A stretch of DNA of 64,000 nt, from positions 1-64,000 of IMG/VR virus record IMGVR_UViG_3300029288_000072. One strand, given 5' to 3'. This DNA comes from a virus. Lineage: Duplodnaviria; Caudoviricetes. Shown one piece after another: positions 1 to 14,117 of this stretch; within the stretch, counting starts at the first letter, position 1, and every line of letters begins with the position of its first letter. A model generated the notes under the pieces. That model was not told where the DNA came from. It was given only the letters and a program-made list of their open reading frames with translations, and made no database searches. Position numbers and translations under genes: made by a program.

Positions 1-172
1 AAGGGCCAAGTTTACGACCTAACCTCTTTTCAATACAACTGATACACAAAAATCCACGTTCATTATTATGGACTTTATACCATATTTCATTTTTCAGAAA
101 AAAATGTTCCCCAATTGTGGCAGTAGAAACTCCACAATCTAAACAGGGTTTAAGTTTATCTCTCTTTTTCAT
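1..172 (-). CDS. Small Cys-rich (CxxC...CxxC) phage protein, partial, runs off the left edge
   Basis: Manual translation MKKRDKLKPCLDCGVST...FLCISCIEKRLGRKLG; ATG lies 6 nt after a TTGACA-N15-TATAAT promoter. Confidence 0.7.
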   Translation of the reverse strand, partial: MKKRDKLKPCLDCGVSTATIGEHFFLKNEIWYKVHNNERGFLCISCIEKRLGRKLGP

Positions 173-205
173 AATATTATTATATGAGTATAAATGATTT
201 GTCAA

Positions 206-793
206 CTAGAAAGTATATCCGATTTCAGCAAACCATCCGATAGTATCCATACTGGCATTGATATGCTCCCGACCACCATTACTAATATGAGAGTATTCAA
301 CACCAAAACGAGTGTAAAAATCATTATAGTCAATCAGAATACCCAATTGGAAAAAGCCAGAATAGTTAACCCGAGACATTTCTTCCCGTTCTTCAATAGT
401 ATAACTATCTACAAGAACAGTATAAGTATTAATAGTCTCAAACTCATGGATTGTCTGAGGCTGACTTAAAAACATCAATCTCTCATCATTCCAAATAATA
501 GCACCACCTAACCCAACAAAAGGCTTAATATTCTTAAGACCAATATTACCATAAATCCGAACAATGGCCCTAGCTTCAATACCATCAATATTATTAATCT
601 CACACGATCCTAAACCAATACTAAAAGAAACAGGAGTATTTTCTTTTATAGTCATTATATCCAACATTACTCCCATACGAGTAACATCAACATCAAACTT
701 ACCATCATACATAGAATCGCTCATATAGGTTGAAACACCAAACTCAACCGCAACCACAGGAACAACCATAGCCATGAGGATTGCAAAGCGCAT
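206..793 (-). CDS. PagL-like (lipid A 3-O-deacylase family) outer-membrane beta-barrel protein
   Basis: Start re-called at 793 (AAGGAG SD, signal peptide MRFAILMAMVVPVVA); HISNGG matches the PagL H-x-S-N motif; C-terminal beta-signal ...IGYTF. Confidence 0.65.
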   Translation of the reverse strand: MRFAILMAMVVPVVAVEFGVSTYMSDSMYDGKFDVDVTRMGVMLDIMTIKENTPVSFSIGLGSCEINNIDGIEARAIVRIYGNIGLKNIKPFVGLGGAIIWNDERLMFLSQPQTIHEFETINTYTVLVDSYTIEEREEMSRVNYSGFFQLGILIDYNDFYTRFGVEYSHISNGGREHINASMDTIGWFAEIGYTF

Positions 794-913
794 CTCTATC
801 TCCTTATGCCTACAATTATATAAACCAATCCACCTATTGCAACACCTATTTACACTCATTTTGTTCTTTACATTCATCCTAAACATGATAATAAAAGTTT
901 AATTAGTTTAAAA

Positions 914-1138
914 TCATTTATTCAAATAATAATCATATGCTTCTTGATGTTTGTAAACTGGTAGTTGATGATGATTTAGTAGTGAGAAAAAATAAAACTT
1001 TTTCTCTGCATCATTTCTACCATGTTTTTCTGCATACGTTATTGCTAGGTTAATAATTTGTAGTTCAACTGAGTTTAAAGTAATTGGAATATATATTCCT
1101 GGGTCCATCATCCAGTGAATTGTTTTAAATGTAATCAT
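914..1138 (-). CDS. hypothetical protein
   Basis: ORF with AAAGGAA SD before MITFK. Confidence 0.6.
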   Translation of the reverse strand: MITFKTIHWMMDPGIYIPITLNSVELQIINLAITYAEKHGRNDAEKKFYFFSLLNHHQLPVYKHQEAYDYYLNK

Positions 1139-1152
1139 TTTAATTCCTTTTG

Positions 1153-1377
1153 TAAAAAGAACCACGCCAGTACCCACTAATAGGATACTGGCGTGGGTCT
1201 ACCCCCTGCAAGGGGTTGGGTTACTCCACGGTTGCAGCCGCTTTTTTCACCCTGGGGAGCTTATTTCCCCTTTAGCTTTGGTGACTCGCCCATATCAATC
1301 CTGGTTAGAAGGAGGAGGTAGATATGTCGGCACATGGGGCCGGGGCAGTAGGTTAGGCTACCTTCCCTGGGGTCGTC
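1153..1377 (-). ncRNA. Putative structured small RNA 1
   Basis: Own promoter (1384-1411), GC-rich hairpins, intrinsic terminator 1153-1197, no SD-led ORF on this strand. Confidence 0.55.
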
Positions 1378-1415
1378 TCGTATATTATATCAAAGAGTGT
1401 TCGCTTGTCAAGAGG

Positions 1416-1574
1416 TTACTTTACTTCTGGATCAAGAAAGAAATCGACCCATGTCATTTGACTACCATGCTTCTTTTGGTAGATATTAAATTGCTTATTA
1501 ATTAATAGATAAGCAAGTAAGGCGATCATCATACCAAACATAATGGTGAAAATAACCTTAATAATAGACTTCAT
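1416..1574 (-). CDS. small membrane protein
   Basis: AAGGAA SD, hydrophobic N-terminal helix. Confidence 0.6.
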   Translation of the reverse strand: MKSIIKVIFTIMFGMMIALLAYLLINKQFNIYQKKHGSQMTWVDFFLDPEVK

Positions 1575-1584
1575 TTTGTTTTCC

Positions 1585-1782
1585 TTAAAGTGGCAAGCGT
1601 TCAGCAATAGCAGTTTCAATATAATCAAGCGTTGCGGAAATAATAATATTACCATCCTTATCAACCAAATTAGCGTAAATAAAATGAGACCGATTGCCCT
1701 TTCCACGACGAATGTTTACAATCGTACACCCAACATAATCTTGAATAGGATTAATTGGATGTGGGTATGTTTTCACACTCAT
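1585..1782 (-). CDS. hypothetical protein
   Basis: Promoter and AAGGAG SD. Confidence 0.7.
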   Translation of the reverse strand: MSVKTYPHPINPIQDYVGCTIVNIRRGKGNRSHFIYANLVDKDGNIIISATLDYIETAIAERLPL

Positions 1783-1835
1783 GGGGTTCTCCTTTTATGA
1801 GAATCATTATATAGAGTATTTGTCAATGTCAAATC

Positions 1836-2048
1836 TTAAACTGCAATTCCCTTTTCGTCTGCATATTGACGAAGTTTTGAAACTTTATCATTCATAGCAT
1901 GATCATCATTAGCCATTGCATACCCAACAACCCGACCACATGCAAAAATTGCTACATTACTACTTGAAACAGATTTAAACCTAACATGCTCATCAATTCT
2001 GATATATGCAATATTTATCAAAGAATTAAAATCTGCATCGGTGGTCAT
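1836..2048 (-). CDS. hypothetical protein
   Basis: Promoter and AAGGGG SD. Confidence 0.7.
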   Translation of the reverse strand: MTTDADFNSLINIAYIRIDEHVRFKSVSSSNVAIFACGRVVGYAMANDDHAMNDKVSKLRQYADEKGIAV

Positions 2049-2084
2049 GTTTATCCCCTTGTAAGAATCATTATATGGATTGAA

Positions 2085-2285
2085 TCAGTCTGTCAAGCTA
2101 CAACCACAACAGGGACAATAATTAAAACGAATATAAACATCCGGTTCATTATGGGAATAAACCTTGGGATTATAGAAAATCCCATCCTCATTAATACTCA
2201 AACTTTCATCATCACCAACCGGATTATTAAGATATAAAGAAAAACTCTTACCAACAAACTCACAACCATCTGCATGCTTACTCAT
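2085..2285 (-). CDS. small Cys-containing protein (FNYCPCCG)
   Basis: Promoter and AGGAG SD. Confidence 0.65.
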   Translation of the reverse strand: MSKHADGCEFVGKSFSLYLNNPVGDDESLSINEDGIFYNPKVYSHNEPDVYIRFNYCPCCGCSLTD

Positions 2286-2435
2286 TCGTTTCTCCTGCAA
2301 TCATTATATGCCAATCAAATCAATTGCAACCACAAAATATTTTACACTCATCATAAACAATTTTGTTCTTTACATTCATCCTAACCATGATAATGAGTCT
2401 AAACTATTGTAAACTAATGAGTTAGTAAATGAGTA

Positions 2436-2661
2436 TAAAAAGAACCGCCCTTCCTATTCTTTTAGGAAGGACGGTTTCTACAATCCTGCCAGATTGTTAC
2501 CCATGATTAGGTTGGCAGTCCTAATCTTGGCTGATGATGATATATTCCTTGGGGGGCGCTAGCCAACAAAAGCCGTATACCCCTGTAAAATATATTCTCA
2601 TCTTTAGGGGTCGGTATTCCCGAATATGTCCCCTTTTGTGCAGAGGGTTGCTGCCCTCATA
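2436..2661 (-). ncRNA. Putative structured small RNA 2 (kissing-loop pair)
   Basis: Own promoter (2668-2694), terminator 2436-2478, two hairpins with complementary loops CUGCCA/UGGCAG. Confidence 0.65.
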
Positions 2662-2673
2662 TGCTATATTATA

Positions 2674-3051
2674 TCAAGTCTTTACGATTGTCAAGGGTTT
2701 CTTATAGCGAGCCAACACCCTTTCTCTCCAAGTCTTTGAGTATTCTCCCATAGGTGCAGTAAGATTCTTGAGAAACTTTTTAGGACAATCCCAATAGTAT
2801 GGACCCATATCCTCACTTAGAGGCTTATATCCAACTTGGCCCTTTGCAGAAAACAACAGGTCAAGATGAATATATCGGTCCATCTTATCACCTACAGTGA
2901 CTTCCATTTGCTTCCACAGACGGTTTCCACGGAGGGAAAACATCAAGCACTTGACATGGACCGGAATACCGGCTGGATTGATATGAGATTCATCCTTGGT
3001 CAATTCCCGAATCAGATTCTCACGGGTTCCAGGCTGATAGTAGGTTCCCAT
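2674..3051 (-). CDS. conserved mobile-element protein (resembles DUF6927)
   Basis: GYKPLSEDMGPYYWDCP motif and WRERV. Confidence 0.55.
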   Translation of the reverse strand: MGTYYQPGTRENLIRELTKDESHINPAGIPVHVKCLMFSLRGNRLWKQMEVTVGDKMDRYIHLDLLFSAKGQVGYKPLSEDMGPYYWDCPKKFLKNLTAPMGEYSKTWRERVLARYKKPLTIVKT

Positions 3052-3094
3052 CGTTTCCCCTTGTGAGAATGATTATATGGATTGGATAAGAATG

Positions 3095-3289
3095 TCAAAT
3101 GAACTTTTCAATCGTCTTAACCTTGCCACACTTGGAGCAAGTAAGAACAATAACTATCTTCTTACGAGTAAGTTCGTACATATCACATGCACGCATTGGA
3201 CCTTTATATCCAACCTTCCTCATATGTTCAACTACACTTTCCCCAATATTTTCAGAAACCTTATTCCACTGATGCTTGCAGAAAAACAT
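3095..3289 (-). CDS. small Zn-binding protein
   Basis: CKHQW...CSKCG; promoter and SD. Confidence 0.65.
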   Translation of the reverse strand: MFFCKHQWNKVSENIGESVVEHMRKVGYKGPMRACDMYELTRKKIVIVLTCSKCGKVKTIEKFI

Positions 3290-3333
3290 GACGGTCTCCT
3301 TATGCTAATGATTATATGGATTGGATAAGAATG

Positions 3334-3573
3334 TCAACCACGAATCAGAGGCATAACAGCAAGAACGATCCACCAAATACCAAACACTACACTGGAAACT
3401 CCACCAAGGAAACTCATAATCATACAAACAATATGACCAGTAAAAATATTACTTGTCTTGCTAAAATCCATATTCTTTGAAATATTGTTAAACCCAATTG
3501 CCATATTCAAGAAACAGAAAATAATAGAAAACACAAAAACACCTAGACTAATAAAAAACAGAATGGGAATCAT
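3334..3573 (-). CDS. two-TM membrane protein
   Basis: Two hydrophobic helices; promoter and SD. Confidence 0.7.
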   Translation of the reverse strand: MIPILFFISLGVFVFSIIFCFLNMAIGFNNISKNMDFSKTSNIFTGHIVCMIMSFLGGVSSVVFGIWWIVLAVMPLIRG

Positions 3574-3619
3574 GGTATATTCTCCTTGTAAGAATGATTA
3601 TATATGAGTTTAAACCCTG

Positions 3620-3811
3620 TCAACCCCTATTTTTCAGTTCCATACAACAATAATGAATCTCATCCTCATAATATCCATAATTAGGATTTTCAGGATAAGC
3701 GTTAATAGCTTCCCGTGCATCCTTAATAATAAACCGCAATTGTTCAACACTTTTATTCTTGAGAGACTTCATATATTCCGAATGATTCATCACCTTAGTA
3801 GGATGACCCAT
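3620..3811 (-). CDS. hypothetical protein
   Basis: Start re-called after promoter and SD. Confidence 0.7.
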   Translation of the reverse strand: MGHPTKVMNHSEYMKSLKNKSVEQLRFIIKDAREAINAYPENPNYGYYEDEIHYCCMELKNRG

Positions 3812-3855
3812 GTCTTTCCCCTTGTAAGAATCATTATATGAGTGTTCCACCGTTG

Positions 3856-4035
3856 TCAATAGCGACTTTGACTATGCTCATTGTGATCCGCATTGCCATA
3901 ATCCCAACGTTCTGCCCCTAGTTCCTTCGCCTTTTTAATAATAACAGCATGCTTATTGCCATCATAATTAGTCCAGGTATGCCATACCAATCGCCCACTA
4001 ATGTAAAATGCAGCCTTAGTCCTATATGCTATCAT
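3856..4035 (-). CDS. hypothetical protein
   Basis: Start re-called after promoter and SD. Confidence 0.65.
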   Translation of the reverse strand: MIAYRTKAAFYISGRLVWHTWTNYDGNKHAVIIKKAKELGAERWDYGNADHNEHSQSRY

Positions 4036-4137
4036 GCTTGTCCCCTTGTGCCATACAGTATATGCATCATGAACACTTGTCAACCCCTAGGATTTCCCTT
4101 TACATCCATCACAAACATGATATACGAAAAATGAGTG

Positions 4138-4303
4138 TAAAAATATACCGGATTTCTCCGGTATAAATCCCCCTCTAGTATATCAGGGAGTCGGGGCACG
4201 TACTCGCTTTCGCCGCCCTTTCGCTAGTAGATGGTGTTCTACTAACTACCGCAAACGACCTACCGGCTAAATAAAAGCCGCGCACTCGCTATTCGTTTGC
4301 TAC
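4138..4303 (-). ncRNA. Putative structured small RNA 3
   Basis: Own promoter (4310-4337); stems GCAAACGA/UCGUUUGC, CGGCU/AGCCG, UAGUAGA/UCUACUA; terminator 4138-4165; no ORF. Confidence 0.6.
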
Positions 4304-4333
4304 ACTTGTATTATATTGTCAATGATGCGCTTG

Positions 4334-4495
4334 TCAAGGACAATGAACAATAATACACTTGATAATATAAGCAAAAGCGCAAATACCTGCCACAATCAGA
4401 CTAGAAGAAAGAATACCACCTAGTCCGTTGCGGGGAATGCAAACAAATACCCCCAATGTGGCAAAAATCAGAGAAAGAATAATTAGAGCAATCAT
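4334..4495 (-). CDS. small membrane protein
   Basis: Two hydrophobic segments; promoter and SD. Confidence 0.65.
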   Translation of the reverse strand: MIALIILSLIFATLGVFVCIPRNGLGGILSSSLIVAGICAFAYIIKCIIVHCP

Positions 4496-4539
4496 TGTTG
4501 TCTCCTTGTGTGATTGATTATATTGGTTTCCAGCCCTTG

Positions 4540-4902
4540 TCAATACTCACTTGCCAGCATCAACACCCCATCAGTATAAAAGAACTTGATTTCATTTACG
4601 GACAAATCAGTGGCATCATATTCCTGACGATACAGAACCTTACAATCACCATCTTCGTAGGTCATAATCGCACGACGATCCTTCGTCACGTTCACCTTGA
4701 CGCAAACAAAGTCTTGACTCTTGACATTCTTGTGATGCGTCAGGACCGCCAGCATGTCAGTAATAACCCAACCAGCATGCTTGTGGACAAACTGAACGCC
4801 ATCCGTGTACCGAATATTCCGATACATCGGATGATAAAACATATTCTCCGATCCGAAAAACCCCGAAAGGTCCGCATCGGTGAATCGCTTGTTGCTCTCC
4901 AT
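4540..4902 (-). CDS. DUF6876-like protein
   Basis: YTDGV...AGW...TDL...EIKFF...VLMLASEY pattern. Confidence 0.6.
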   Translation of the reverse strand: MESNKRFTDADLSGFFGSENMFYHPMYRNIRYTDGVQFVHKHAGWVITDMLAVLTHHKNVKSQDFVCVKVNVTKDRRAIMTYEDGDCKVLYRQEYDATDLSVNEIKFFYTDGVLMLASEY

Positions 4903-5057
4903 GTTTGTCCCCTTGTGTCTCTCATTATATGAACCAAACAAGCAAATCAACCTAATTCTTTACACTCATTTTGTTCTTTACATCCATCACAAACATGATA
5001 TTGCACAAATGAATGTAAAATAAAAGGATAGGTATTAACCTACCCTTTTATGATTGT

Positions 5058-5399
5058 TCAATGTTCACAGACCATTATACTGCATTTTGTAGTCCACTTA
5101 GGATACTTTTTAAATCCACCCATTATATGAATGCTAATATGTAAATTACACGATTCAACATAATGACTTCGTTGAAAAATATTACTATCAAATAAATACG
5201 CATCTTTTAAATCATTAATTAGGTAGCAAATCTGATTTCTCCACTCGTTAAACGATACAATATGTCCATTATTATGCTTACGCAATTCCACCCATGCCTT
5301 GTAGAGATTGTATCCCTCTCCATCTTCCCAATTCAACGTGCGAATCTTTTCCTTAAACTCATTGATAGCATCAATAGCAACCAACCGGATGGGACGCAT
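5058..5399 (-). CDS. hypothetical protein
   Basis: Promoter, SD and terminator. Confidence 0.7.
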   Translation of the reverse strand: MRPIRLVAIDAINEFKEKIRTLNWEDGEGYNLYKAWVELRKHNNGHIVSFNEWRNQICYLINDLKDAYLFDSNIFQRSHYVESCNLHISIHIMGGFKKYPKWTTKCSIMVCEH

Positions 5400-5590
5400 G
5401 GTTGTCTCCTTGTGCCTCTCATTATATGAACCTCACAAGCAAATCAACCTATTTCTTCCCCTCTCATCCCCACTATTGACATCCATCAGAAACATGATAA
5501 TGAGTCTAAACTATTGTAAATATTATAGTAATAAAAAAATCCCCTAGTATTTCTACTAGGGGATACTCCGCTCCACTTCCTACTGGAAGA

Positions 5591-5836
5591 TTAGTAATCG
5601 TCTTCTGGATCATACTTTCCACGGGGCTTGGAACGAGGGCCATGCACCACTTCCATATGCTCCCGCCGGTATTCCTCCATCGCCACGGCAAGGATATGCC
5701 GCTTGTCACCCTCTGAAATATCACCACAATAGTCGGTGATGACTTCTCGCTCATTCTTGAACCCTGACCCCTTGGGATCATCCCAATAGTCAAAGAGGTT
5801 GTCAATCAGAGCATCGTCAATAGTCATGGTGGTCAT
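5591..5836 (-). CDS. acidic hypothetical protein
   Basis: SD AAGGGAG; terminator at 5540-5563. Confidence 0.65.
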   Translation of the reverse strand: MTTMTIDDALIDNLFDYWDDPKGSGFKNEREVITDYCGDISEGDKRHILAVAMEEYRREHMEVVHGPRSKPRGKYDPEDDY

Positions 5837-5881
5837 TTTCTCCCTTTCTAGGAGGATTTGTTATGCGTTTGATTATATGAC

Positions 5882-6085
5882 CTAGTGTAAATTGTCAAGT
5901 AGTATTTCCTGTCGTCTTGCCATTCTGATCCAAGTTCTTGCCATCCAACGATTTAGTATTTCATCAGCAATTTTTCCACACAAATCAGGAGCAATCGACT
6001 TGCGCCACCGATTCTTGAAAAGAGTCAATGCATATGAACGTTGTAAAGGTATTGAAACTAACTCACTATCTATAATTCTTGCCAT
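5882..6085 (-). CDS. hypothetical protein
   Basis: Promoter and SD. Confidence 0.65.
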   Translation of the reverse strand: MARIIDSELVSIPLQRSYALTLFKNRWRKSIAPDLCGKIADEILNRWMARTWIRMARRQEILLDNLH

Positions 6086-6156
6086 GTTTGTTTCCTTGCT
6101 CCATACATTATATACCTACAATATACAAATCAATATATTTTTAAACTCGTTTAATA

Positions 6157-6558
6157 TCAATACCAGTGTATTTTATTTTTTTGTTCAATTCTATAACCAC
6201 TATCATGCATTATATCTCTAGTTGATGAAATATTCTTAAAAAGATTCCATACTTCAAGGTTAGTTTGATCTAATGTTTGGATAAACGCCCATAGTTTTTC
6301 ATCATAAGGAAGAATAATTCCACCAGGAATTATCCTTTTACCATTTACATCAAATACTGGTTTTACACTATCATAAAAAAACTCACCATCAATTAACTTA
6401 GCAACTACAGGAGGAGAATCTTTTTCATTATCAATTAGAATAAAAAGATTTCCAATCTTTTTTGTCCACACAGGTTCCCAATTATGTCTAATAGTTTCAA
6501 CATAAATATTAGGAGTCTTAAATAATTTTTTCCACAATTCTTTGAGGAACATGTTCAC
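6157..6558 (-). CDS. hypothetical protein
   Basis: Promoter and GGAG SD. Confidence 0.7.
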   Translation of the reverse strand: MNMFLKELWKKLFKTPNIYVETIRHNWEPVWTKKIGNLFILIDNEKDSPPVVAKLIDGEFFYDSVKPVFDVNGKRIIPGGIILPYDEKLWAFIQTLDQTNLEVWNLFKNISSTRDIMHDSGYRIEQKNKIHWY

Positions 6559-6665
6559 TCCCGTATGATAACCATTATATACTGATTATACACAAATCAA
6601 CCGGTTTCTTTATACTTGACATCCATCAGAAACATGATAATGAGTTTAAATTTATTAAATGAGTA

Positions 6666-6924
6666 TAAAAAATAAACCCCAAGGATCATAACTCCTTGGG
6701 GTCTATACCCTTACGCTCAAACGCATCTATGGGGCGAACCCCTCCGCTCGCGTAGCCGATTAGGGAATAAGTGACGACTTCGGAGGAATCTGGCAACCTT
6801 CCTAGTCATCCGTGGCTTACGGTTCCACGATCCGTATTTAGGTCACTTTCAAGATTAAAGCCTTTATTAATATATTCACTTCTGCATAACTAACTCCTTT
6901 ATTCATGGGTGATATGCTTGTTGA
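6666..6924 (-). ncRNA. Putative structured small RNA 4 (pseudoknot; MQK minigene)
   Basis: Own promoter (6931-6958), H-type pseudoknot at 6811-6836, terminator 6666-6702. Confidence 0.6.
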
Positions 6925-6954
6925 GCCTACATTATATCTACCACTTTACACTTG

Positions 6955-7173
6955 TCAAGATGGTTTGTTATCCTTCTCAAACCCATATTCAATAATCCCT
7001 AATTTTTGGTCTGCATCATCTTCTGCCGCTTCTTCAGTTGGAAAAGGGCCATCCGTAAAATCTTCATCAGGATAAACACCCATATTATCCTGCCACCAAT
7101 AAGAGGCAGAAAAATTACCCCAATAATAACCATCCTCAAACTTACGAACAACTACAAAGTTGTCAGCACTCAT
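6955..7173 (-). CDS. acidic hypothetical protein
   Basis: AAGGA SD. Confidence 0.7.
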   Translation of the reverse strand: MSADNFVVVRKFEDGYYWGNFSASYWWQDNMGVYPDEDFTDGPFPTEEAAEDDADQKLGIIEYGFEKDNKPS

Positions 7174-7175
7174 GT

Positions 7176-7403
7176 TTATTCCTTATTATTATAAAAAATT
7201 ATACCATCAAGTTTACTAATACCATTAGGAGGAGTAACACTAATATTATCAACATTAACCTTTTTAAGGAAACATTTATCAATTAAATAATCTACAATCT
7301 GAAACATCTCTGGAATATAACCATGCTCACCACGATAATGAATGGTGACATTTCCGTTTTTTGTCTTATTATGACTATTGACTAACGGAAAAAACGCAGG
7401 CAT
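7176..7403 (-). CDS. hypothetical protein
   Basis: Promoter and SD. Confidence 0.65.
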   Translation of the reverse strand: MPAFFPLVNSHNKTKNGNVTIHYRGEHGYIPEMFQIVDYLIDKCFLKKVNVDNISVTPPNGISKLDGIIFYNNKE

Positions 7404-7435
7404 GTTTTATTCCTTTTCACTCATTATATTTACAC

Positions 7436-7657
7436 TCATTTCAAGTCAAGTAAAATACAATCAGCACAAATACCTTTTGCTTCCCGATCAATATGATTAA
7501 TTAATACACAATCTTCTTGTGCCTTAGTTCCCGGTTTCAAGGTGATAGGACTATAATGAACTACCGGAATATTATCAAACGTGTTTAAAATAATAGGATA
7601 TGCAGAACCCCAATTATTAATATCCTGACCCTTAGTAATCAAATGATATGTTTTCAT
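7436..7657 (-). CDS. hypothetical protein (probably leaderless)
   Basis: ATG 7 nt after TATAAT. Confidence 0.55.
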   Translation of the reverse strand: MKTYHLITKGQDINNWGSAYPIILNTFDNIPVVHYSPITLKPGTKAQEDCVLINHIDREAKGICADCILLDLK

Positions 7658-7692
7658 TTGTTCCATTATATGTTCCTTAAAACACTTGTCAA

Positions 7693-7950
7693 TTATCGCT
7701 TAGGATTATTCTGCTCTAATTCCCTAATCCTTGCCCTAAGTCTAACACTTTCTAACAACATTTGATTATATGCGTCAAGCATCCTTTTATCCGGATTAGT
7801 ATTTACAACCTTTTCAACATATTCCTTCTTAACTACTTCTTTAATAGGTGCATTCTTCTTACCATAATATGCACCAGCTATAAATGAAATGGTCACATAG
7901 ACCACCGTAATAATAGCATACTGACAAATTATTTTGCTGTCGTATCTCAT
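7693..7950 (-). CDS. membrane-anchored coiled-coil protein (probably leaderless)
   Basis: TM helix followed by coiled coil; ATG 7 nt after TATAAT. Confidence 0.6.
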   Translation of the reverse strand: MRYDSKIICQYAIITVVYVTISFIAGAYYGKKNAPIKEVVKKEYVEKVVNTNPDKRMLDAYNQMLLESVRLRARIRELEQNNPKR

Positions 7951-8103
7951 GCAAATCATTATATCATCCTAAATACCTTTGCAATCACTTTCTTACTACT
8001 TGACATCCATCATAAACATGATATAGACAAAATGAGTGTAAAAACTAATAGGTTAGTAAATGAGTATAAAAATTAAAGGGGCAGTTTTGCCCCTTTAATC
8101 TGT

Positions 8104-8469
8104 CTAGAAGTTATAGTCATAAAACTTATAGGCAACACCCATCAGAAAGGGAGTACCCTTCATCGCCCAACCACGCTTGGTCAGACGAATCTTGGTCTTG
8201 ACCGGATTGGCAGGAATCGCCAGATCATACTCCAATTCCCTCTGGTTTGTGCAATGAGCACAGAACCCACCAGGAACAAACTCTGGCTTGATCGTCTCAC
8301 ATAAAGTCGATTCCAGGGGAATCACGGTGGCAGTCTTGCCACTCTTAGAAACCTCCACCACCATGTACGGATGGCGATCCGTGTACCCGCAATAGGTACA
8401 ACCGAGACCAGGAACCGCCGCCAGGGTGCGGCTGGGGTTGGGGTCAGTCTTGGTCGGGTTAGTCGGCAT
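8104..8469 (-). CDS. phage hypothetical protein
   Basis: Promoter, AAGGAGG SD and terminator. Confidence 0.75.
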   Translation of the reverse strand: MPTNPTKTDPNPSRTLAAVPGLGCTYCGYTDRHPYMVVEVSKSGKTATVIPLESTLCETIKPEFVPGGFCAHCTNQRELEYDLAIPANPVKTKIRLTKRGWAMKGTPFLMGVAYKFYDYNF

Positions 8470-8623
8470 GTCTGCCTCCTTGTACGACTAATTATATGCT
8501 CTTTCCAATCCTGTCAATCCCCCAACTTTTGTATAACCTTCCACCGATTTCCGTTTACATCCATCCCCAACATGATATAAACCTACTACTTCAATAGTAA
8601 ATGAGTATAAAAATAAATGGTCC

Positions 8624-9004
8624 TTATGGACCATTTACCACCACCCGATACAACTGCCTTGCATACTTGGGCATCTTCCGATGCAAGAGAGCCATACCCT
8701 TCGGACCCAGCGGAGTCGCGTACAATAGCGTTTTTCCGGCTGCATGTGCATTCCAATGAGAAATGATGCGCTGGGCTAGGATCGACAATATCTTTGCGTC
8801 TACACCCGAAAAACCAACCCCATTGTAATCAACTGTCGCTTCCTTTGATACTTCCTCCATAGTCTGAAACTGAAACACACGAACACACCCCTGCATCGCC
8901 CATTTAGAATCGTTCGCTAACTTATTCTTAATAAAACTAATAGCCTCCTTCTGGCTCATCGCCAAAATGCGGTCCCTAATAGCGGCTTTACGTTCGTTGC
9001 TCAT
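8624..9004 (-). CDS. phage hypothetical protein (QT..E...NGVGF.G.DA motif)
   Basis: Promoter, leaderless start. Confidence 0.75.
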   Translation of the reverse strand: MSNERKAAIRDRILAMSQKEAISFIKNKLANDSKWAMQGCVRVFQFQTMEEVSKEATVDYNGVGFSGVDAKILSILAQRIISHWNAHAAGKTLLYATPLGPKGMALLHRKMPKYARQLYRVVVNGP

Positions 9005-9172
9005 ATCAAACTATTGTATAACCATCCTACTCATGTCAAGATCCTAAATCATCCTTGACATTCTTAAATACCATGATAACTACCTCAATGAGTTTAAAAA
9101 AACTAATACATTAGTAAATGAGTGTAAAAACTAACCCCCTCCAAGTTTCCTTGGAAGGGGTGACAATCTTTG

Positions 9173-9868
9173 TCAGTCCGCTTCTACCATGAGGCTCGCA
9201 ACCTCGGCAGGCATAACCGTTTCCTTGTCGATGGTAAGACGGTCATAGTTGCCATCCTTGAGTGACAGCATCTTGTATGGCAACATACCATCCTCGCAGT
9301 AGGTCTCTACTTCCCCCTTCGCAATAGTGAGGGGACGGCTGTTGGTCGCCTTGTATTTGCCTTCAACGTGGACCTTGCGAGACACTTCAAGCACCGAAAC
9401 CATGATGCTAGCAACAGTCGGAACCCCGTCAGCATCCAGCACCGGCACCTTGACCTTGCGACCATCTACTACTCCGTCAGTAGTGACAAGGTGGCACTTG
9501 ATCCCCTGACCGCTATGGACGTAGCACCGAGCATGGCCTTGTCGATACCCGTCTGACTCCTTATCCCCTGCGAGAGTCTTGGTCAGACTCTCAACTACGA
9601 GGTTGCGAGCCTCCTCATGGAGCGCATCAGTAGCAACGTACCCCTTCGCACGTTCCAGCATACGCTGGCAACGCTTGCCATAAGAGAATCGACTAATGAA
9701 GTTGATAGTCGAAACCCCAGAAACGATGCACTTGGGATCACTGGTGCCACTGACATAGTTGTGGACAGTGGCAAAACCACCATGCCGACAACTATCCAGC
9801 ACGTTGAGCGCATCCAGTGTGCGCTCATCAATGTTTACAAGCGTTCCGTCGAGTGTGATGCGTGGCAT
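9173..9868 (-). CDS. hypothetical protein, 231 aa
   Basis: Promoter, AAGGAGG SD and terminator 9135-9161. Confidence 0.8.
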   Translation of the reverse strand: MPRITLDGTLVNIDERTLDALNVLDSCRHGGFATVHNYVSGTSDPKCIVSGVSTINFISRFSYGKRCQRMLERAKGYVATDALHEEARNLVVESLTKTLAGDKESDGYRQGHARCYVHSGQGIKCHLVTTDGVVDGRKVKVPVLDADGVPTVASIMVSVLEVSRKVHVEGKYKATNSRPLTIAKGEVETYCEDGMLPYKMLSLKDGNYDRLTIDKETVMPAEVASLMVEAD

Positions 9869-10023
9869 GCTTGCCTCCTTGTACGACTCATTATATCAAC
9901 CAAAATCAGTTTGCAAGTATTCTTCTGTTTACAATCGTCTTCATATTTCTACTATATTAGTTTACACTTGACATCCATCTAAAACATGATAATACAAAAA
10001 CTAATCCATTAGTAAATGAGTAT

Positions 10024-10295
10024 AAAACAAAACCCCGATGGGTGATCATTCCATCGGGGTCGTTGGCAGGCTTTCGCCTTTGGTTTGGTTGCGATCCTGC
10101 ACCAGCGGTGCCCCTACGCTTTGCCATGCGTGGGAGTTTATTGCATATCCTCCGCAGCCCATCTCCCAAAACTTGCGGATTAAGCCTATGACATTTGACG
10201 GGCAGGAGTCAGCCATAGGCAACTAACCCCTATTGCCCTTCATAATCGTCGCTTTAACATTTGCCCATCCTTATAGGTTAGGCGTTCATGTGTAT
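10024..10295 (-). ncRNA. Putative structured small RNA 5
   Basis: Own promoter (10302-10328); stems GCCUAUG/CAUAGGC and CCGCA/UGCGG, AGGC-GAAA-GCCU tetraloop; terminator 10024-10060. Confidence 0.6.
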
Positions 10296-10409
10296 GCCTA
10301 AATTATATCAACAATCTCAACTTGTCAATACCCATGTTTACACTTGACATCCATCATAAACATGATAAACGTAAATGAGTGTAAAACTAAAAGAGTGGTT
10401 TCCCACCCT

Positions 10410-10640
10410 TTAGTTTAATGGCCATTGATAGTCAATATACATTAGACGCAATATATCGAATATCTCACCAAAATCTGTCGAATTATACAACCGATCAAAA
10501 TTGTAAGGAGCAGATACAGGCTGATTCCGAATAAACTTATTGAAAAACCATTGACCAACTCGTAACGTCTTACGAGGATCATCTTCCTCATATTCCGTCA
10601 TTATGTTGCGAAAGGATGGAATTGGATGTTTGTAGCTCAT
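10410..10640 (-). CDS. hypothetical protein (leaderless)
   Basis: MSYKH start 7 nt after TATAAT. Confidence 0.65.
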   Translation of the reverse strand: MSYKHPIPSFRNIMTEYEEDDPRKTLRVGQWFFNKFIRNQPVSAPYNFDRLYNSTDFGEIFDILRLMYIDYQWPLN

Positions 10641-10803
10641 GATAACTATTATATCAACTACATAAACATTACAAGTGTAAACTTTACACTTGACATCCAT
10701 CATAAACATGATAACCATATTTAAATGAGTTTAAAACTAATAAGTTAGTAAATGAGTGTAAAGAAAGGGGATAGTTGTTCCCATCCCCTTTGTCGGTTTC
10801 CTA

Positions 10804-11622
10804 TTAAACCTCTACTTCCTGGACAGCCTCGACCGGAACCGGCTTGCCCGCCTTGAGAATCTTATCGACTGCCACCATAATAGCCTTAGCACTCTTTTCG
10901 GGAATCCGTTGGCCACCATGCAGGCTATTCCAATGCTGGATATAACCACGGGACTCGTCGCCACCCGCCAGACCTAAGACTTCCCCCACAATGTAAGCAA
11001 CCGTTTCCGCTTCAATTTCCCTAAGACTACGCTCCATCGTAGGATGTTCGGGGTTCCAATCGTTTTCCCCCGTATGACCCAGCACAATATGGGCAATCTC
11101 ATGGATCAGAGTCTTGGCAGGATGCATAGCAATCGGGGAAACTGCCACCTTGCGACCCTTGGCGTATCCCTGGCAGTTGCCATTTACCATATCATACGAA
11201 ACCCGCTCAATCCCCATCTTGTCCAAGCAACGATCCCCCTCCCAATCAACCGTATGAGTCTCATGCTTGAAACTATCAACCTCGCCACTCACAACCTCCG
11301 TCTGCGACAATGCAAACCACAGACTGCGGAATGTGAACCCAATCATACGAGGATCATCATTCTTTTCCCCCTTGCGTGCGAACAACGGCATGCACAAGGT
11401 CAGACCTTTGCTACCCTTGCGAACAACGCGACCCATCGTTTGCCAACGCTTGAAAGTAGCAATCGGACCAACTTCTATCCCCCTAATCTTCATCTGATGC
11501 ATAGCCAATAAACTATTCATAAAACTATAGTCGTGAAACATACTATAACATTGGGCAATAATGCCCGGCTTGCTAATAGCCTCGTCCAACAGAGTCTCAA
11601 ACGGGATCGGGGTGTCGTTCAT
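10804..11622 (-). CDS. ArdC-like antirestriction protein (ssDNA-binding N-domain plus zincin-like HExxH domain)
   Basis: YSFMNSLL, ATFKRWQTMGRVVRKGSKG, FALSQT, HEIAH, EIEAETVAY, SRGYIQHW. Confidence 0.8.
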   Translation of the reverse strand: MNDTPIPFETLLDEAISKPGIIAQCYSMFHDYSFMNSLLAMHQMKIRGIEVGPIATFKRWQTMGRVVRKGSKGLTLCMPLFARKGEKNDDPRMIGFTFRSLWFALSQTEVVSGEVDSFKHETHTVDWEGDRCLDKMGIERVSYDMVNGNCQGYAKGRKVAVSPIAMHPAKTLIHEIAHIVLGHTGENDWNPEHPTMERSLREIEAETVAYIVGEVLGLAGGDESRGYIQHWNSLHGGQRIPEKSAKAIMVAVDKILKAGKPVPVEAVQEVEV

Positions 11623-11819
11623 GTCTCGCTCCTATGCTATGGATTATATACCTTTCTTTCCACAGTCAATAGACAATCACCTTATCTCCCTTGTATAAAT
11701 CTCCATAAAATTTCTGTTTACATCCATCATAAACATGATAACTACCTAATTGAGTGTAAAACTAATAAGTTAGTAAATGAGTGTAAAACTAGAGGGGTGG
11801 TTTCCCACCCCTCTAGTCG

Positions 11820-12002
11820 TCAGACCATGACGCGCAACGCTTGCGCCTTGGCCAGCAGACTCCGCAACACGATGCGAGTAGCACCATCGTTGCGAACCTC
11901 CCAGCACAGCCGAATCTTATGATTCAGCCGATCAGTTGCAACGCTACGAGCGTTCTCACAACCAGCATAGGCGTTCAGGGTCGGAATGGCGATGGCAACC
12001 AT
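11820..12002 (-). CDS. hypothetical protein
   Basis: Promoter, AAGGAGG SD and terminator. Confidence 0.65.
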   Translation of the reverse strand: MVAIAIPTLNAYAGCENARSVATDRLNHKIRLCWEVRNDGATRIVLRSLLAKAQALRVMV

Positions 12003-12139
12003 GGGTGCCTCCTTGTACGACTCATTATATTAACCTAAACACCCTGTCAACCATTACCTTTACACTCATCTCCATTATTGACATCCATCATAAACATGAT
12101 AACTACCTAAACGGGTGTAAACGAGTGTAAACTATCCCA

Positions 12140-12325
12140 CTACTCCTGTGGATCCGGTCCTGGCAACTTACTATCACAATACTCAATTATAGACCTAATA
12201 AACTCAGGACCAGCATCTAATACCTTGCGATCATTGAACGCAATAGTATTCTCATACCCTTCACAACATTTCTTGTATTTCTTGCCCGATCCACACGGAC
12301 ACAACTCATTCCTTCCTATCTTCAT
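12140..12325 (-). CDS. SEC-C metal-binding motif protein
   Basis: [20 protein letters not shown]. Confidence 0.85.
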
Positions 12326-12326
12326 A

Positions 12327-12416
12327 CTACCACCACCCCATAAAGCAACCAATGCCATAGAGGTTCACTACAATCGCAAACCCCAAGTAAGGCGCGGCAT
12401 ACGCTAACTGACGCAT
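12327..12416 (-). CDS. 29-aa hydrophobic peptide [29 protein letters not shown]
   Basis: Promoter 12434-12460 and AGGAG SD; below the ORF-track cutoff. Confidence 0.6.
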
Positions 12417-12524
12417 TCGTTTCTCCTGCAACCATTATACCACTCCATAACCATTGTCAATAACTAATATTACACTTTACATCCATGAGTAACATGATAT
12501 AGACCTACAACTACTAATTACAAA

Positions 12525-13010
12525 CATAAATTACCGTAATTACTACCTATCCGTAATTTCCTATGAGTGTAAATTACCGTAATTTCCATAATTACCGCTA
12601 TACCCCCCCATAGTAGTAACCACCCCCTCCCTATTATACCCCCACTTACTACCCCCCTCAAATGTCCAAAACACAGTATTAGGAGGGGGGTACTAAGGGG
12701 GCAATTCCACCGTAACTCAAATTTTTATACATTTAAACTTATTTAGGATTTTAAACTCATTTAGGGTCATTTACAATAATTTAAACTTATTTAAACTCAT
12801 TTACAATAGTTTAACCCCATTTTAAATTAGTTTAATTACTTTATAGTCCGTAATAGGGACAAAATACGATTTTAAATTGGTTTAAAATATGGGAAAAATT
12901 TTTTGGGGTGGGGATTTACAATGGTAGGGTTTATTATAGTCCGATAGTTAGGGAAATTTAGGTATCGTTGGATATTGATTTTTGGGAAAAATTTTTATGG
13001 GGTGGGTTTT
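12525..13010. other. Non-coding junction: candidate replication origin or genome terminus
   Basis: AATTACCGTAAT repeats, ACCCCCCTC/GAGGGGGGT inverted repeat, tandem TTTAAACT(C/T)ATTTA, local C-rich to G-rich switch. Confidence 0.5.
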
Positions 13011-13173
13011 TATTTCCAGGGGTTTTATGGTTTTTTATATAGTTGTTACATAGTTTATTATTAGATATAGTAATATAGAGGAATAGGAGGTTAATACAGT
13101 ATAGGAATAGGATTAACAATATAAAGGAAGCGAGCATGAGGTTTACAATCATTTATATTATTTTTTTCTTTCT

Positions 13174-13518
13174 TTAGAATATTTGTCTAATATCAATGAA
13201 GCTAATATCCAGGACTTTTGGATTCCATCCTGTTTTACCATTTTTTTGACTAGATACGACTGCATTAGGGTGTTTAAGTAGGACGGCGTATCTACCGAGT
13301 GGTTTATCTGGATATGTTGTATCTGGGTCGATTCTTTGGTAATTTATAGTAGTGATGATATCATTAAGTAGTGTTTTTAATAGTGAGGCGTTTTCTATCC
13401 AAGGGGTAGCGATGATATCTAGGTCTCTTTTAGTTGATCCGTGTATAGCGATAGTCCAACCGTGTGAGTTAGCGACAGATTTGATAGTATCTAGTAATAT
13501 TTTATCTTTTTTATTCAT
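13174..13518 (-). CDS. putative minimal nucleotidyltransferase-like protein
   Basis: HGSTKRDLDII (GS...DxD) motif. Confidence 0.5.
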   Translation of the reverse strand: MNKKDKILLDTIKSVANSHGWTIAIHGSTKRDLDIIATPWIENASLLKTLLNDIITTINYQRIDPDTTYPDKPLGRYAVLLKHPNAVVSSQKNGKTGWNPKVLDISFIDIRQIF

Positions 13519-13535
13519 GTTAAATTTTTCGTATT

Positions 13536-14117
13536 TTAAATTTCTATTATTGAGTAATAATATTCTGTATTTATGAAATTTGGAGAAACGGTGAATTTAT
13601 TATCTATTTGTCCGATAACAATTCCGGTATCGTATATTTTTGATCCATGATATCCTACGAGTAGTTTATTTTTCAAATCTTTATAGAGGCAAGTTATATT
13701 AAATATTTTAGATACGCCAGAGAACGGGAGATTTTCCAGGAAGTTTGTTCCGGTTAATTGGCATTTTGTTTCTATAATTTGCAGTTCATTTTCGTTTAAT
13801 AGGTTTTTTATTAATTGTTCATTTCCGATTAAGAAGTTTCCGCAACTTCTACTTGTATCTTTTGCTATATTAAAAGATGTTTTTAATAAAGTACTTATTA
13901 ATTTATTATTTAGTTTAAATGTATTTTTTGCTATTTTAAGGGCATACTCAATATATGCATTAATAGCATCGTTATAGTTATTATAGGTATTACAATTAGT
14001 TATGTTCATTTTTTCTGTAGTTAGGCCGTGAGATTTTTTATATCGAATAGTAAATATTACGTTATCATGTAATTGTATTGGGAAAAATGTTTCGACATCG
14101 AATATATCGGTTTCCAT
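13536..14117 (-). CDS. degenerate T4 gp23-like capsid-fragment protein
   Basis: IAKDTSRSCGNFLIG and LLVGYHGSKIYDTG resemble gp23 IARxTxRGxGNFII and VGYKGxxxxDAG. Confidence 0.5.
   Translation of the reverse strand: METDIFDVETFFPIQLHDNVIFTIRYKKSHGLTTEKMNITNCNTYNNYNDAINAYIEYALKIAKNTFKLNNKLISTLLKTSFNIAKDTSRSCGNFLIGNEQLIKNLLNENELQIIETKCQLTGTNFLENLPFSGVSKIFNITCLYKDLKNKLLVGYHGSKIYDTGIVIGQIDNKFTVSPNFINTEYYYSIIEI

Follow-up and report, generated by a model that had tools for sequence, protein, structure and literature searches.

A PeSL-like cassette array of a very divergent T4-like phage with a 24-bp motif at quantised distances from its predicted promoters

The closest described relatives of the locus reported here are the promoter-early stem-loops (PeSLs) of T4-type phages, known from RB49/phi1, T4/PST and KVP40/nt-1 (Arbiol et al., 2010, PMC2839356; Comeau et al., 2014, PMC4122927). 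Crossovers were mapped there to the part of the elements that holds the promoter and the Shine–Dalgarno sequence (SD), and small circles were detected (PMC2839356, PMC4122927). We have analysed a stretch of 64,000 nucleotides (the window), which is the initial 64 kb of the IMG/VR record IMGVR_UViG_3300029288_000072 (Duplodnaviria; Caudoviricetes). Its first 13 kb hold an array of small, leftward gene cassettes, separated by composite modules with a conserved 24-bp motif (the 24-mer). An earlier note, made from the letters of this DNA, had likened the array to PeSLs.

The likeness is borne out. As with PeSLs, the elements occur in a T4-type phage that has a homologous recombination system, and they consist of terminator stem-loops (often GGGG...CCCC) that immediately precede near-consensus sigma70 promoters, with an SD and a start codon after them. 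They lie together in a plastic part of the genome that has many small genes of no known homology, and the breakpoints of insertions, deletions and replacements lie inside them. The differences are equally clear. Between stem-loop and promoter, the modules carry an extra conserved 24-bp motif and 11–12-bp boxes at whole-turn distances, where the PeSL papers describe a generally AT-rich region and no specific protein-recognition element (PMC2839356, PMC4122927). The promoter spacer is 15 bp instead of 17, the elements form one 12.8-kb array whose GC content is 10–20 points above that of the rest of the genome, and the phage is only about 30% identical in its DNA polymerase to any catalogued T4-like phage. 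PeSL-type shuffling arrays are thus known, and what is new is that a conserved 24-bp element keeps helical phase with the cassette promoters. We consider it reasonably probable that the region is a PeSL-type early-gene array in which the modules shuffle cassettes and the 24-mer is a regulator site acting on the first promoter of each unit.

The pattern TTKACATYCATCNNAAACATGATA (up to three mismatches) has 14 matches, every one on the plus strand, against 0.04 expected from shuffled sequences; a fifteenth copy is degenerate (Table 1). The 15 same-orientation repeats of the earlier note therefore stand, as 14 clean copies and a degenerate one. Across the whole record, copies with at most two mismatches are confined to 867–12499, and beyond the array not even a fragment of 13 nt or longer occurs; targeting of the repeat by a TnpB guide is rejected on that ground. 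Copies follow one another at 346–1730 bp. All local genes are leftward, and on their (minus) strand the 24-mer reads TATCATGTTTATGATGGATGTCAA; within it, the 3′ half, ATGGATGTAAA, resembles a box in inverted orientation. Two metagenome contigs, L014 (4,403 bp) and L015 (8,686 bp), were found through the 231-amino-acid protein of the array in a metagenome scan by protein alignment, and each carries seven further copies. The 29 copies of the three arrays have the invariant core TATCATGT.....ATG...GT.AA. Within one genome the 24-mers are near-identical, and their central positions vary among the three arrays. Neighbouring copies in the window resemble one another more closely than they would in shuffled order (p = 0.014), a pattern that recombination or duplication at the repeats would produce. 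The palindrome ATCAT-N4-ATGAT, which the note had seen in many copies, is present in five of the 15, missing from the other window copies and not kept in L014. Motif scans of IMG/VR returned one and then 36 matches, all single-copy and explicable by chance; the one looked at more closely, L013, falls within a gene. A scan of prokaryote genomes gave at least 120 single-copy matches at chance level, which is uninformative.

The transcription signals described throughout are predictions. On the minus strand, a module runs from a terminator hairpin through one or more TTTACACTCAT boxes and TATCATGTTTATGATGGATGTCAA to a TTGACA-N15-TATAAT promoter, a ribosome-binding site and the gene or genes. The hairpin is GC-rich and its T-run merges into one or two TTTACACTCAT boxes; in the example listed in Table 1, the two boxes are separated by a small ACTAA/TTAGT hairpin. 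Seen on the plus strand, the AATGAGT(G/A/T)TAAA boxes come after the repeat and overlap the T-run of the preceding leftward terminator, much as had been noted, with the qualification that the hairpin is found at only about 12 of the 15 window copies. The boxes are largely a property of the array (19 of 24 exact matches in the genome fall within the first 13 kb), and the 24-mer is often trailed by another, inverted box, (ATGAG)TGTAAA, before the promoter. A leftward TTGACA-N15-TATAAT promoter is present downstream of all 15 window copies, confirming that the repeat sits just upstream of the first leftward promoter of a block. Promoters (at least 23 consensus ones in the array) outnumber the 24-mers; most array genes have their own, and the 24-mer occurs only at the first promoter after a terminator. 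The leader has a fixed length of 21 nt with the ribosome-binding site ACAAGGAG. The spacer is 15 bp in 18 of the 27 consensus promoters found in window 1–12600, and likewise in the promoters of L014 and L015, but the consensus promoters of the remaining genome favour 16 bp (31 of 80); therefore the array has its own promoter geometry.

The distance from the 24-mer to the −10 box is quantised. Among 27 modules of the three arrays it is 36–37 nt (eight modules), 46–50 nt (11), 57–61 nt (five) or 68–72 nt (three), with none between. The best period is 11–11.5 bp, a score that none of 20,000 simulated uniform sets reached (p < 5e-5), and the periodicity persists once modules with similar spacer sequences are merged. 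The seven 36-nt spacers of the window are equal in length and unrelated in sequence, and in two pairs of orthologous modules the window and L014 are one turn apart, by 10 nt (36 versus 46) and by 11 nt (48 versus 59). If transcription is assumed to start 7 nt after the −10 box, the motif is centred near −60, −71, −82 and −93. Class I activator sites of the CRP type are centred near −61.5, −72.5, −82.5 and −92.5, and the spacing classes, for these predicted starts, fit such sites. The array shares with class I activator-dependent promoters a discrete upstream site in four distance classes about one helical turn apart. Unlike the sites of those promoters, the motif matches none of the regulator consensus sites considered: an informal comparison by eye with CRP, Fur, PhoB, IHF, Fis, marbox, TyrR and lambda operator sites gave no convincing match, and the starts here are predicted ones. 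From the quantised spacing we infer that the 24-mer is most likely a regulator-binding site; the earlier suggestion of a protein-binding site gains independent support from this spacing.

Cassette exchange can be followed by comparison with L014. Both contigs repeat the terminator, motif and N15-promoter plan of the window. One of the seven motif copies of L014 is degenerate and TATCATGTTTGGAATGGATGTAAA is the commonest form; those of L015 read TATCATGT-N5-(A/G)TGATAGTCAA and form the palindrome TATCAT-N7-ATGATA. In the AT-rich left 650 bp of L014 lies a homologue (49% amino-acid identity) of a gene at 45.3 kb of the source phage; a non-coding head follows, about 70% identical to window 13012–12780. 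Because this independent assembly also joins this kind of array to AT-rich phage DNA, the corresponding join in the window is not an assembly chimera. Shared cassettes are 68–79% identical at the DNA level, and four cassette-level insertions or deletions separate the two arrays. Where the window has a single 24-mer at 12476, L014 has two extra cassettes between two 24-mers; the left flank of the window copy is that of the first L014 copy and its right flank that of the third. L014 has one more extra cassette at window copy 12078, flanked by two L014 modules that hardly differ from one another over the stretch between 24-mer and −35 box. Three window cassettes from 11716 to 9968, the ArdC-like gene included, are missing in L014, with the homology switching between the 24-mer and the −10 box. 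Finally, the DUF6876 cassette, found 4 kb beyond the 231-amino-acid cassette in the window, comes next after it in L014, and the homology switches just after a degenerate 24-mer.

All four events thus break within the module between cassettes, at the 24-mer or shortly downstream of it, in keeping with the earlier suggestion that the repeat is a recombination point. The comparison shows that the turnover of cassettes between related phages, whether by gain, loss or exchange, takes place at the modules. The crossover points are spread over the module and are not fixed, which fits homologous rather than site-specific recombination. L015 shares just the 231-amino-acid query gene with the window; this protein is common to all three arrays because it was used as the search query. 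Seven further homologues of it (P0003, P0005–P0009, P0011) lie outside the scanned Joint Genome Institute (JGI) collection, and their contigs are not in the comparison.

The record is 198,442 bp long, has an estimated completeness of 84% and is without end repeats. Among its T4-type markers (PHROGs) are a gp43-type DNA polymerase, the large subunit of topoisomerase II and a gp5-type baseplate hub, and a RecA/UvsX-like gene is located at 172,060–173,253 of the record. The polymerase is merely 28–32% identical to that of any of 2,686 matching phage records. A DNA-level search of 50,697 phage records found no match to the array or to 24 kb of core genome, and relatives sought in IMG/VR through neighbouring genes or the polymerase were not found. 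On these sequence markers, the source phage is a very divergent T4-like phage.

The most likely role of the 24-mer is that of a regulator-binding site doubling as a recombination patch. Each transcription unit would start with a composite module made up of the terminator of the previous unit, the TTTACACTCAT box or boxes, the 24-mer, the sigma70-type promoter with its 15-bp spacer and the 21-nt leader. Cassettes would most likely be shuffled by homologous recombination of the phage UvsX/RecA type between the directly repeated modules of about 50–100 bp, since variable crossover points and the lack of a recombinase in the record make this the economical mechanism. The 24-mer would be a double-stranded DNA site for a putative regulator, of phage or host, that acts on RNA polymerase; the argument is one of geometry. 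Because the motif is kept on one helix face, one to four turns upstream of the −35 box and with its centre near the four positions given above, such a regulator would touch RNA polymerase from that face.

Several observations weigh against this explanation. The four indel events are a small sample, drawn from one close relative (4.4 kb) and one distant one (8.7 kb). The positions −60, −71, −82 and −93 depend on assumed, predicted transcription starts; the fitted period of 11–11.5 bp is slightly above the 10.5 bp of B-DNA; and gain or loss of whole 11–12-nt box units could give part of the quantisation without any selection for helical phase. No candidate for the binding protein was found in the phage, where HTH_3 gave one weak, sub-threshold match and Trans_reg_C none. 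The promoters within blocks work without a 24-mer, and two L014 copies (1150, 1660) have no recognisable promoter downstream. Weaker −35 boxes at the 24-mer-linked promoters were considered and rejected, being significant only on a biased list (p = 0.31 and 0.45 when assessed gene by gene); as these boxes are not significantly weaker, activation over repression is not supported.

Other explanations account for parts of the same evidence. The 24-mer may have no function of its own and be a homology patch, kept alike by concerted evolution, that enables shuffling by exactly the mechanism proposed for PeSLs (PMC2839356, PMC4122927). The near-identity of copies within a genome, their different centres between arrays, the close likeness of neighbours and the scatter of crossovers over the module all agree with such a patch. 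We nevertheless regard it as unlikely: it leaves the quantised, sequence-independent promoter spacing unexplained, and TATCATGT and GT.AA are invariant between arrays whose sole shared protein is 47% identical. The helical phasing is equally without a reason if the 24-mer is itself a leftward, phage-specific (middle-mode-like) promoter, with TATCAT as its −10 element, TTTACAC as an activator box and tandem promoters in each unit. TATCAT does conform to TAnnnT and is invariant in 29 of 29 copies, two L014 cassettes have a 24-mer and no sigma70 promoter, and a TTTACA box often stands 12–14 nt upstream, recalling the geometry of the T4 MotA box (PMC4122927). However, the box stands anywhere between 5 and 16 nt from TATCAT or is absent altogether, as it is in L015, and no MotA homologue was found, although the control search for that family was uninformative; we judge this promoter quite unlikely. 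A T7-type RNA polymerase was not found either, with an equally uninformative control search. Transcription in the other direction has the least to recommend it. The earlier note had pointed to a resemblance to a rightward TTGACA-N14-GATAA(T/C) promoter, which would give antisense or small RNAs into the preceding cassette. The plus strand does begin with TTGACA or TTTACA and a few copies have GATAAT 14 nt later, but a 14-bp spacer is too short and no register is workable. There is no TAnnnT −10 box at 16–18 bp; at 16 bp the hexamer is TA(A/T)nnn, and none of the 14 clean window copies has a T at its last position, nor have the L015 copies, which were read by eye. The conserved spacer sequence is atypical of promoters, and no plus-strand T-run follows the hairpin that could terminate such an RNA. 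This resemblance did not hold, and a rightward sigma70 promoter seems to us scarcely credible.

A comparison with integrons raises a further possibility. Like integron arrays, the locus has one-directional, unrelated small genes with a repeated site between them, turnover of cargo and apparently the newest cargo near a conserved head. The 24-mer would then be the core site of a dedicated site-specific recombinase, in an integron-like capture platform with the head (12500–13010) as the entry point. All copies have the same orientation, the L015 version is palindromic, GC-rich and apparently recent cargo is nearest the head (rho 0.49, p = 0.008), and the extra cassettes of L014 stand directly behind its first and second copies. 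Against this, searches with Phage_integrase and Resolvase gave no match to a tyrosine or serine recombinase in the 198-kb, 84% complete record; the gene adjoining the array differs between the window and L014, and the flanking genes are without a Pfam match. There is no integrase, no attC-type folded site and no conserved fold, the palindrome is conserved neither in the window nor in L014, and the crossover points are variable. Each cassette also carries its own promoter and terminator, unlike integron cassettes, which lack promoters and depend on a common one. We consider a dedicated site-specific recombinase very improbable; what little probability it has comes from the GC gradient and the conserved head.

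Table 1. Positions of the 24-mers, module parts, head and cargo genes of the array in the window.
Feature	Position	Strand	Details
24-mer copy 1	12476..12499	−	divergent, TATCATGTTACTCATGGATGTAAA on gene strand; 36 nt to −10 box
24-mer copy 2	12078..12101	−	48 nt to −10 box; heads 60-amino-acid gene cassette
24-mer copy 3	11717..11740	−	68 nt to −10 box; heads ArdC-like cassette
24-mer copy 4	10690..10713	−	36 nt to −10 box
24-mer copy 5	10344..10367	−	36 nt to −10 box
24-mer copy 6	9968..9991	−	72 nt to −10 box; heads 231-amino-acid gene cassette
24-mer copy 7	9055..9078	−	degenerate, TATCATGGTATTTAAGAATGTCAA; 36 nt to −10 box
24-mer copy 8	8554..8577	−	57 nt to −10 box
24-mer copy 9	8000..8023	−	36 nt to −10 box
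24-mer copy 10	6616..6639	−	36 nt to −10 box; same sequence as copy 11
24-mer copy 11	5476..5499	−	49 nt to −10 box
24-mer copy 12	4977..5000	−	47 nt to −10 box; heads DUF6876 cassette; same sequence as copy 13
24-mer copy 13	4099..4122	−	36 nt to −10 box; heads block of six promoter–gene units
24-mer copy 14	2369..2392	−	60 nt to −10 box
24-mer copy 15	867..890	−	46 nt to −10 box; heads PagL-like gene
Upstream half of a module (example)	11741..11812	−	GC-rich terminator hairpin, T-run into two TTTACACTCA boxes
Array promoter TTGACA-N15-TATAAT (example)	12024..12050	−	start codon 21 nt on, behind ACAAGGAGG leader
Whole cassette array	200..13010	−	about 28 small genes, all leftward, plus a few non-coding cassettes
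Conserved non-coding head	12500..13010	−	about 70% identical to L014 652–1067
SEC-C-motif protein, small	12140..12358	−	motif match; conserved in L014
ArdC-like protein, 272 amino acids	10804..11622	−	ArdcN 1.2e-8 and weak M78 metallopeptidase match; absent from L014
231-amino-acid protein (phrog_38317)	9173..9868	−	distant homologues in Xanthomonas and Stenotrophomonas jumbo phages
DUF6876 protein, 120 amino acids	4540..4902	−	family match
195-amino-acid protein	206..793	−	PagL match below Pfam's threshold

The GC content of the array (first 12.5 kb) is 36–46%, compared with about 26% for the genome. The cargo genes encode proteins of 52–272 amino acids; only three have a Pfam match above threshold and roughly 20 are without any family. 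Of the cargo calls made earlier, the ArdC-like gene is confirmed, the PagL-like one remains below threshold and no Rfam family stands behind the non-coding RNAs. The 231-amino-acid protein has homologues in the jumbo phages XacN1, Xoo-sp13, CM1 and RAS14, with conserved Cys/His positions; its AlphaFold model is confident (predicted local distance difference test, pLDDT, 84), yet Foldseek found no match in the PDB. The cargo of L015 includes a weak DUF932-like gene and a radical SAM gene (3149–3946 and 6070–6804). Conjugative elements often carry DUF932 and ArdC genes. A role of the array in host takeover or anti-defence, as the earlier note had it, is backed in the window by the one ArdC-like gene, with DUF932 and radical SAM genes added in L015, and most of the cargo has no known family.

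The GC content at third codon positions (GC3) of the cargo ranges from 0.17 to 0.62 and declines away from the 13-kb end (Spearman rho 0.49, p = 0.008; window 206–12002), from about 0.6 near the head to about 0.2–0.3 at the far end; the genes at 5591–5836 and 4540–4902 are GC-rich exceptions. The wide range and the gradient show that the cargo genes are of mixed origins or ages, and the gradient may be an age gradient of imported genes. The cargo consists mostly of orphan genes of mixed origin, with an anti-restriction-type gene, the ArdC-like one, among them.

The conserved head (window 12500–13010, L014 650–1150) contains several ATTACGG(TAATT) palindromes, two CCCCACCCC-AAAAAATTTTTCCC units and, at 12750–12830, five or six box-like units (TGTAAAT / TTTAAAT) at an exact 10-bp spacing. 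A G7/C7 segment of the head has the conserved loop ATACTGTGTTTTGGAC, with the G-run and the C-run swapped between the window and L014; folded as RNA, this segment is no more stable than shuffled sequence.

Four perfect TTGACA-N16-TATAAT promoters of the array (1384–1411, 4310–4337, 6931–6958 and 7665–7692) are not followed directly by any convincing ribosome-binding site or gene and may head non-coding RNA cassettes; an Rfam search of 1–13600 matched no family. At the other end of the array, transcription from the final promoter (205–179) would leave the contig by way of an AT-rich gene (GC 30%) in window 1–205. Base 200 is probably close to the true end of the array, which would then not have been truncated at the contig boundary.

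PeSL arrays are regarded as the means by which T4-type phages try out new accessory genes, and the locus extends PeSL-type shuffling to a lineage whose polymerase shares only about 30% identity with that of any catalogued T4 relative. The phase-locked motif raises the question whether one regulator controls the whole plastic array and whether the same site guides exchange. There is a slim chance that both are so, in a dedicated gene-capture and expression platform where one protein, by recognising both the 24-mer and the boxes, would turn on the first promoters as well as direct recombination, and where new, foreign GC-rich genes would enter by the head and lose GC as they move away. If true, the platform would be a promoter-carrying, integrase-free functional counterpart of the integron in a lytic phage. 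With its spread of GC3 in a 26% GC genome, the cargo looks like a visible record of gene import.

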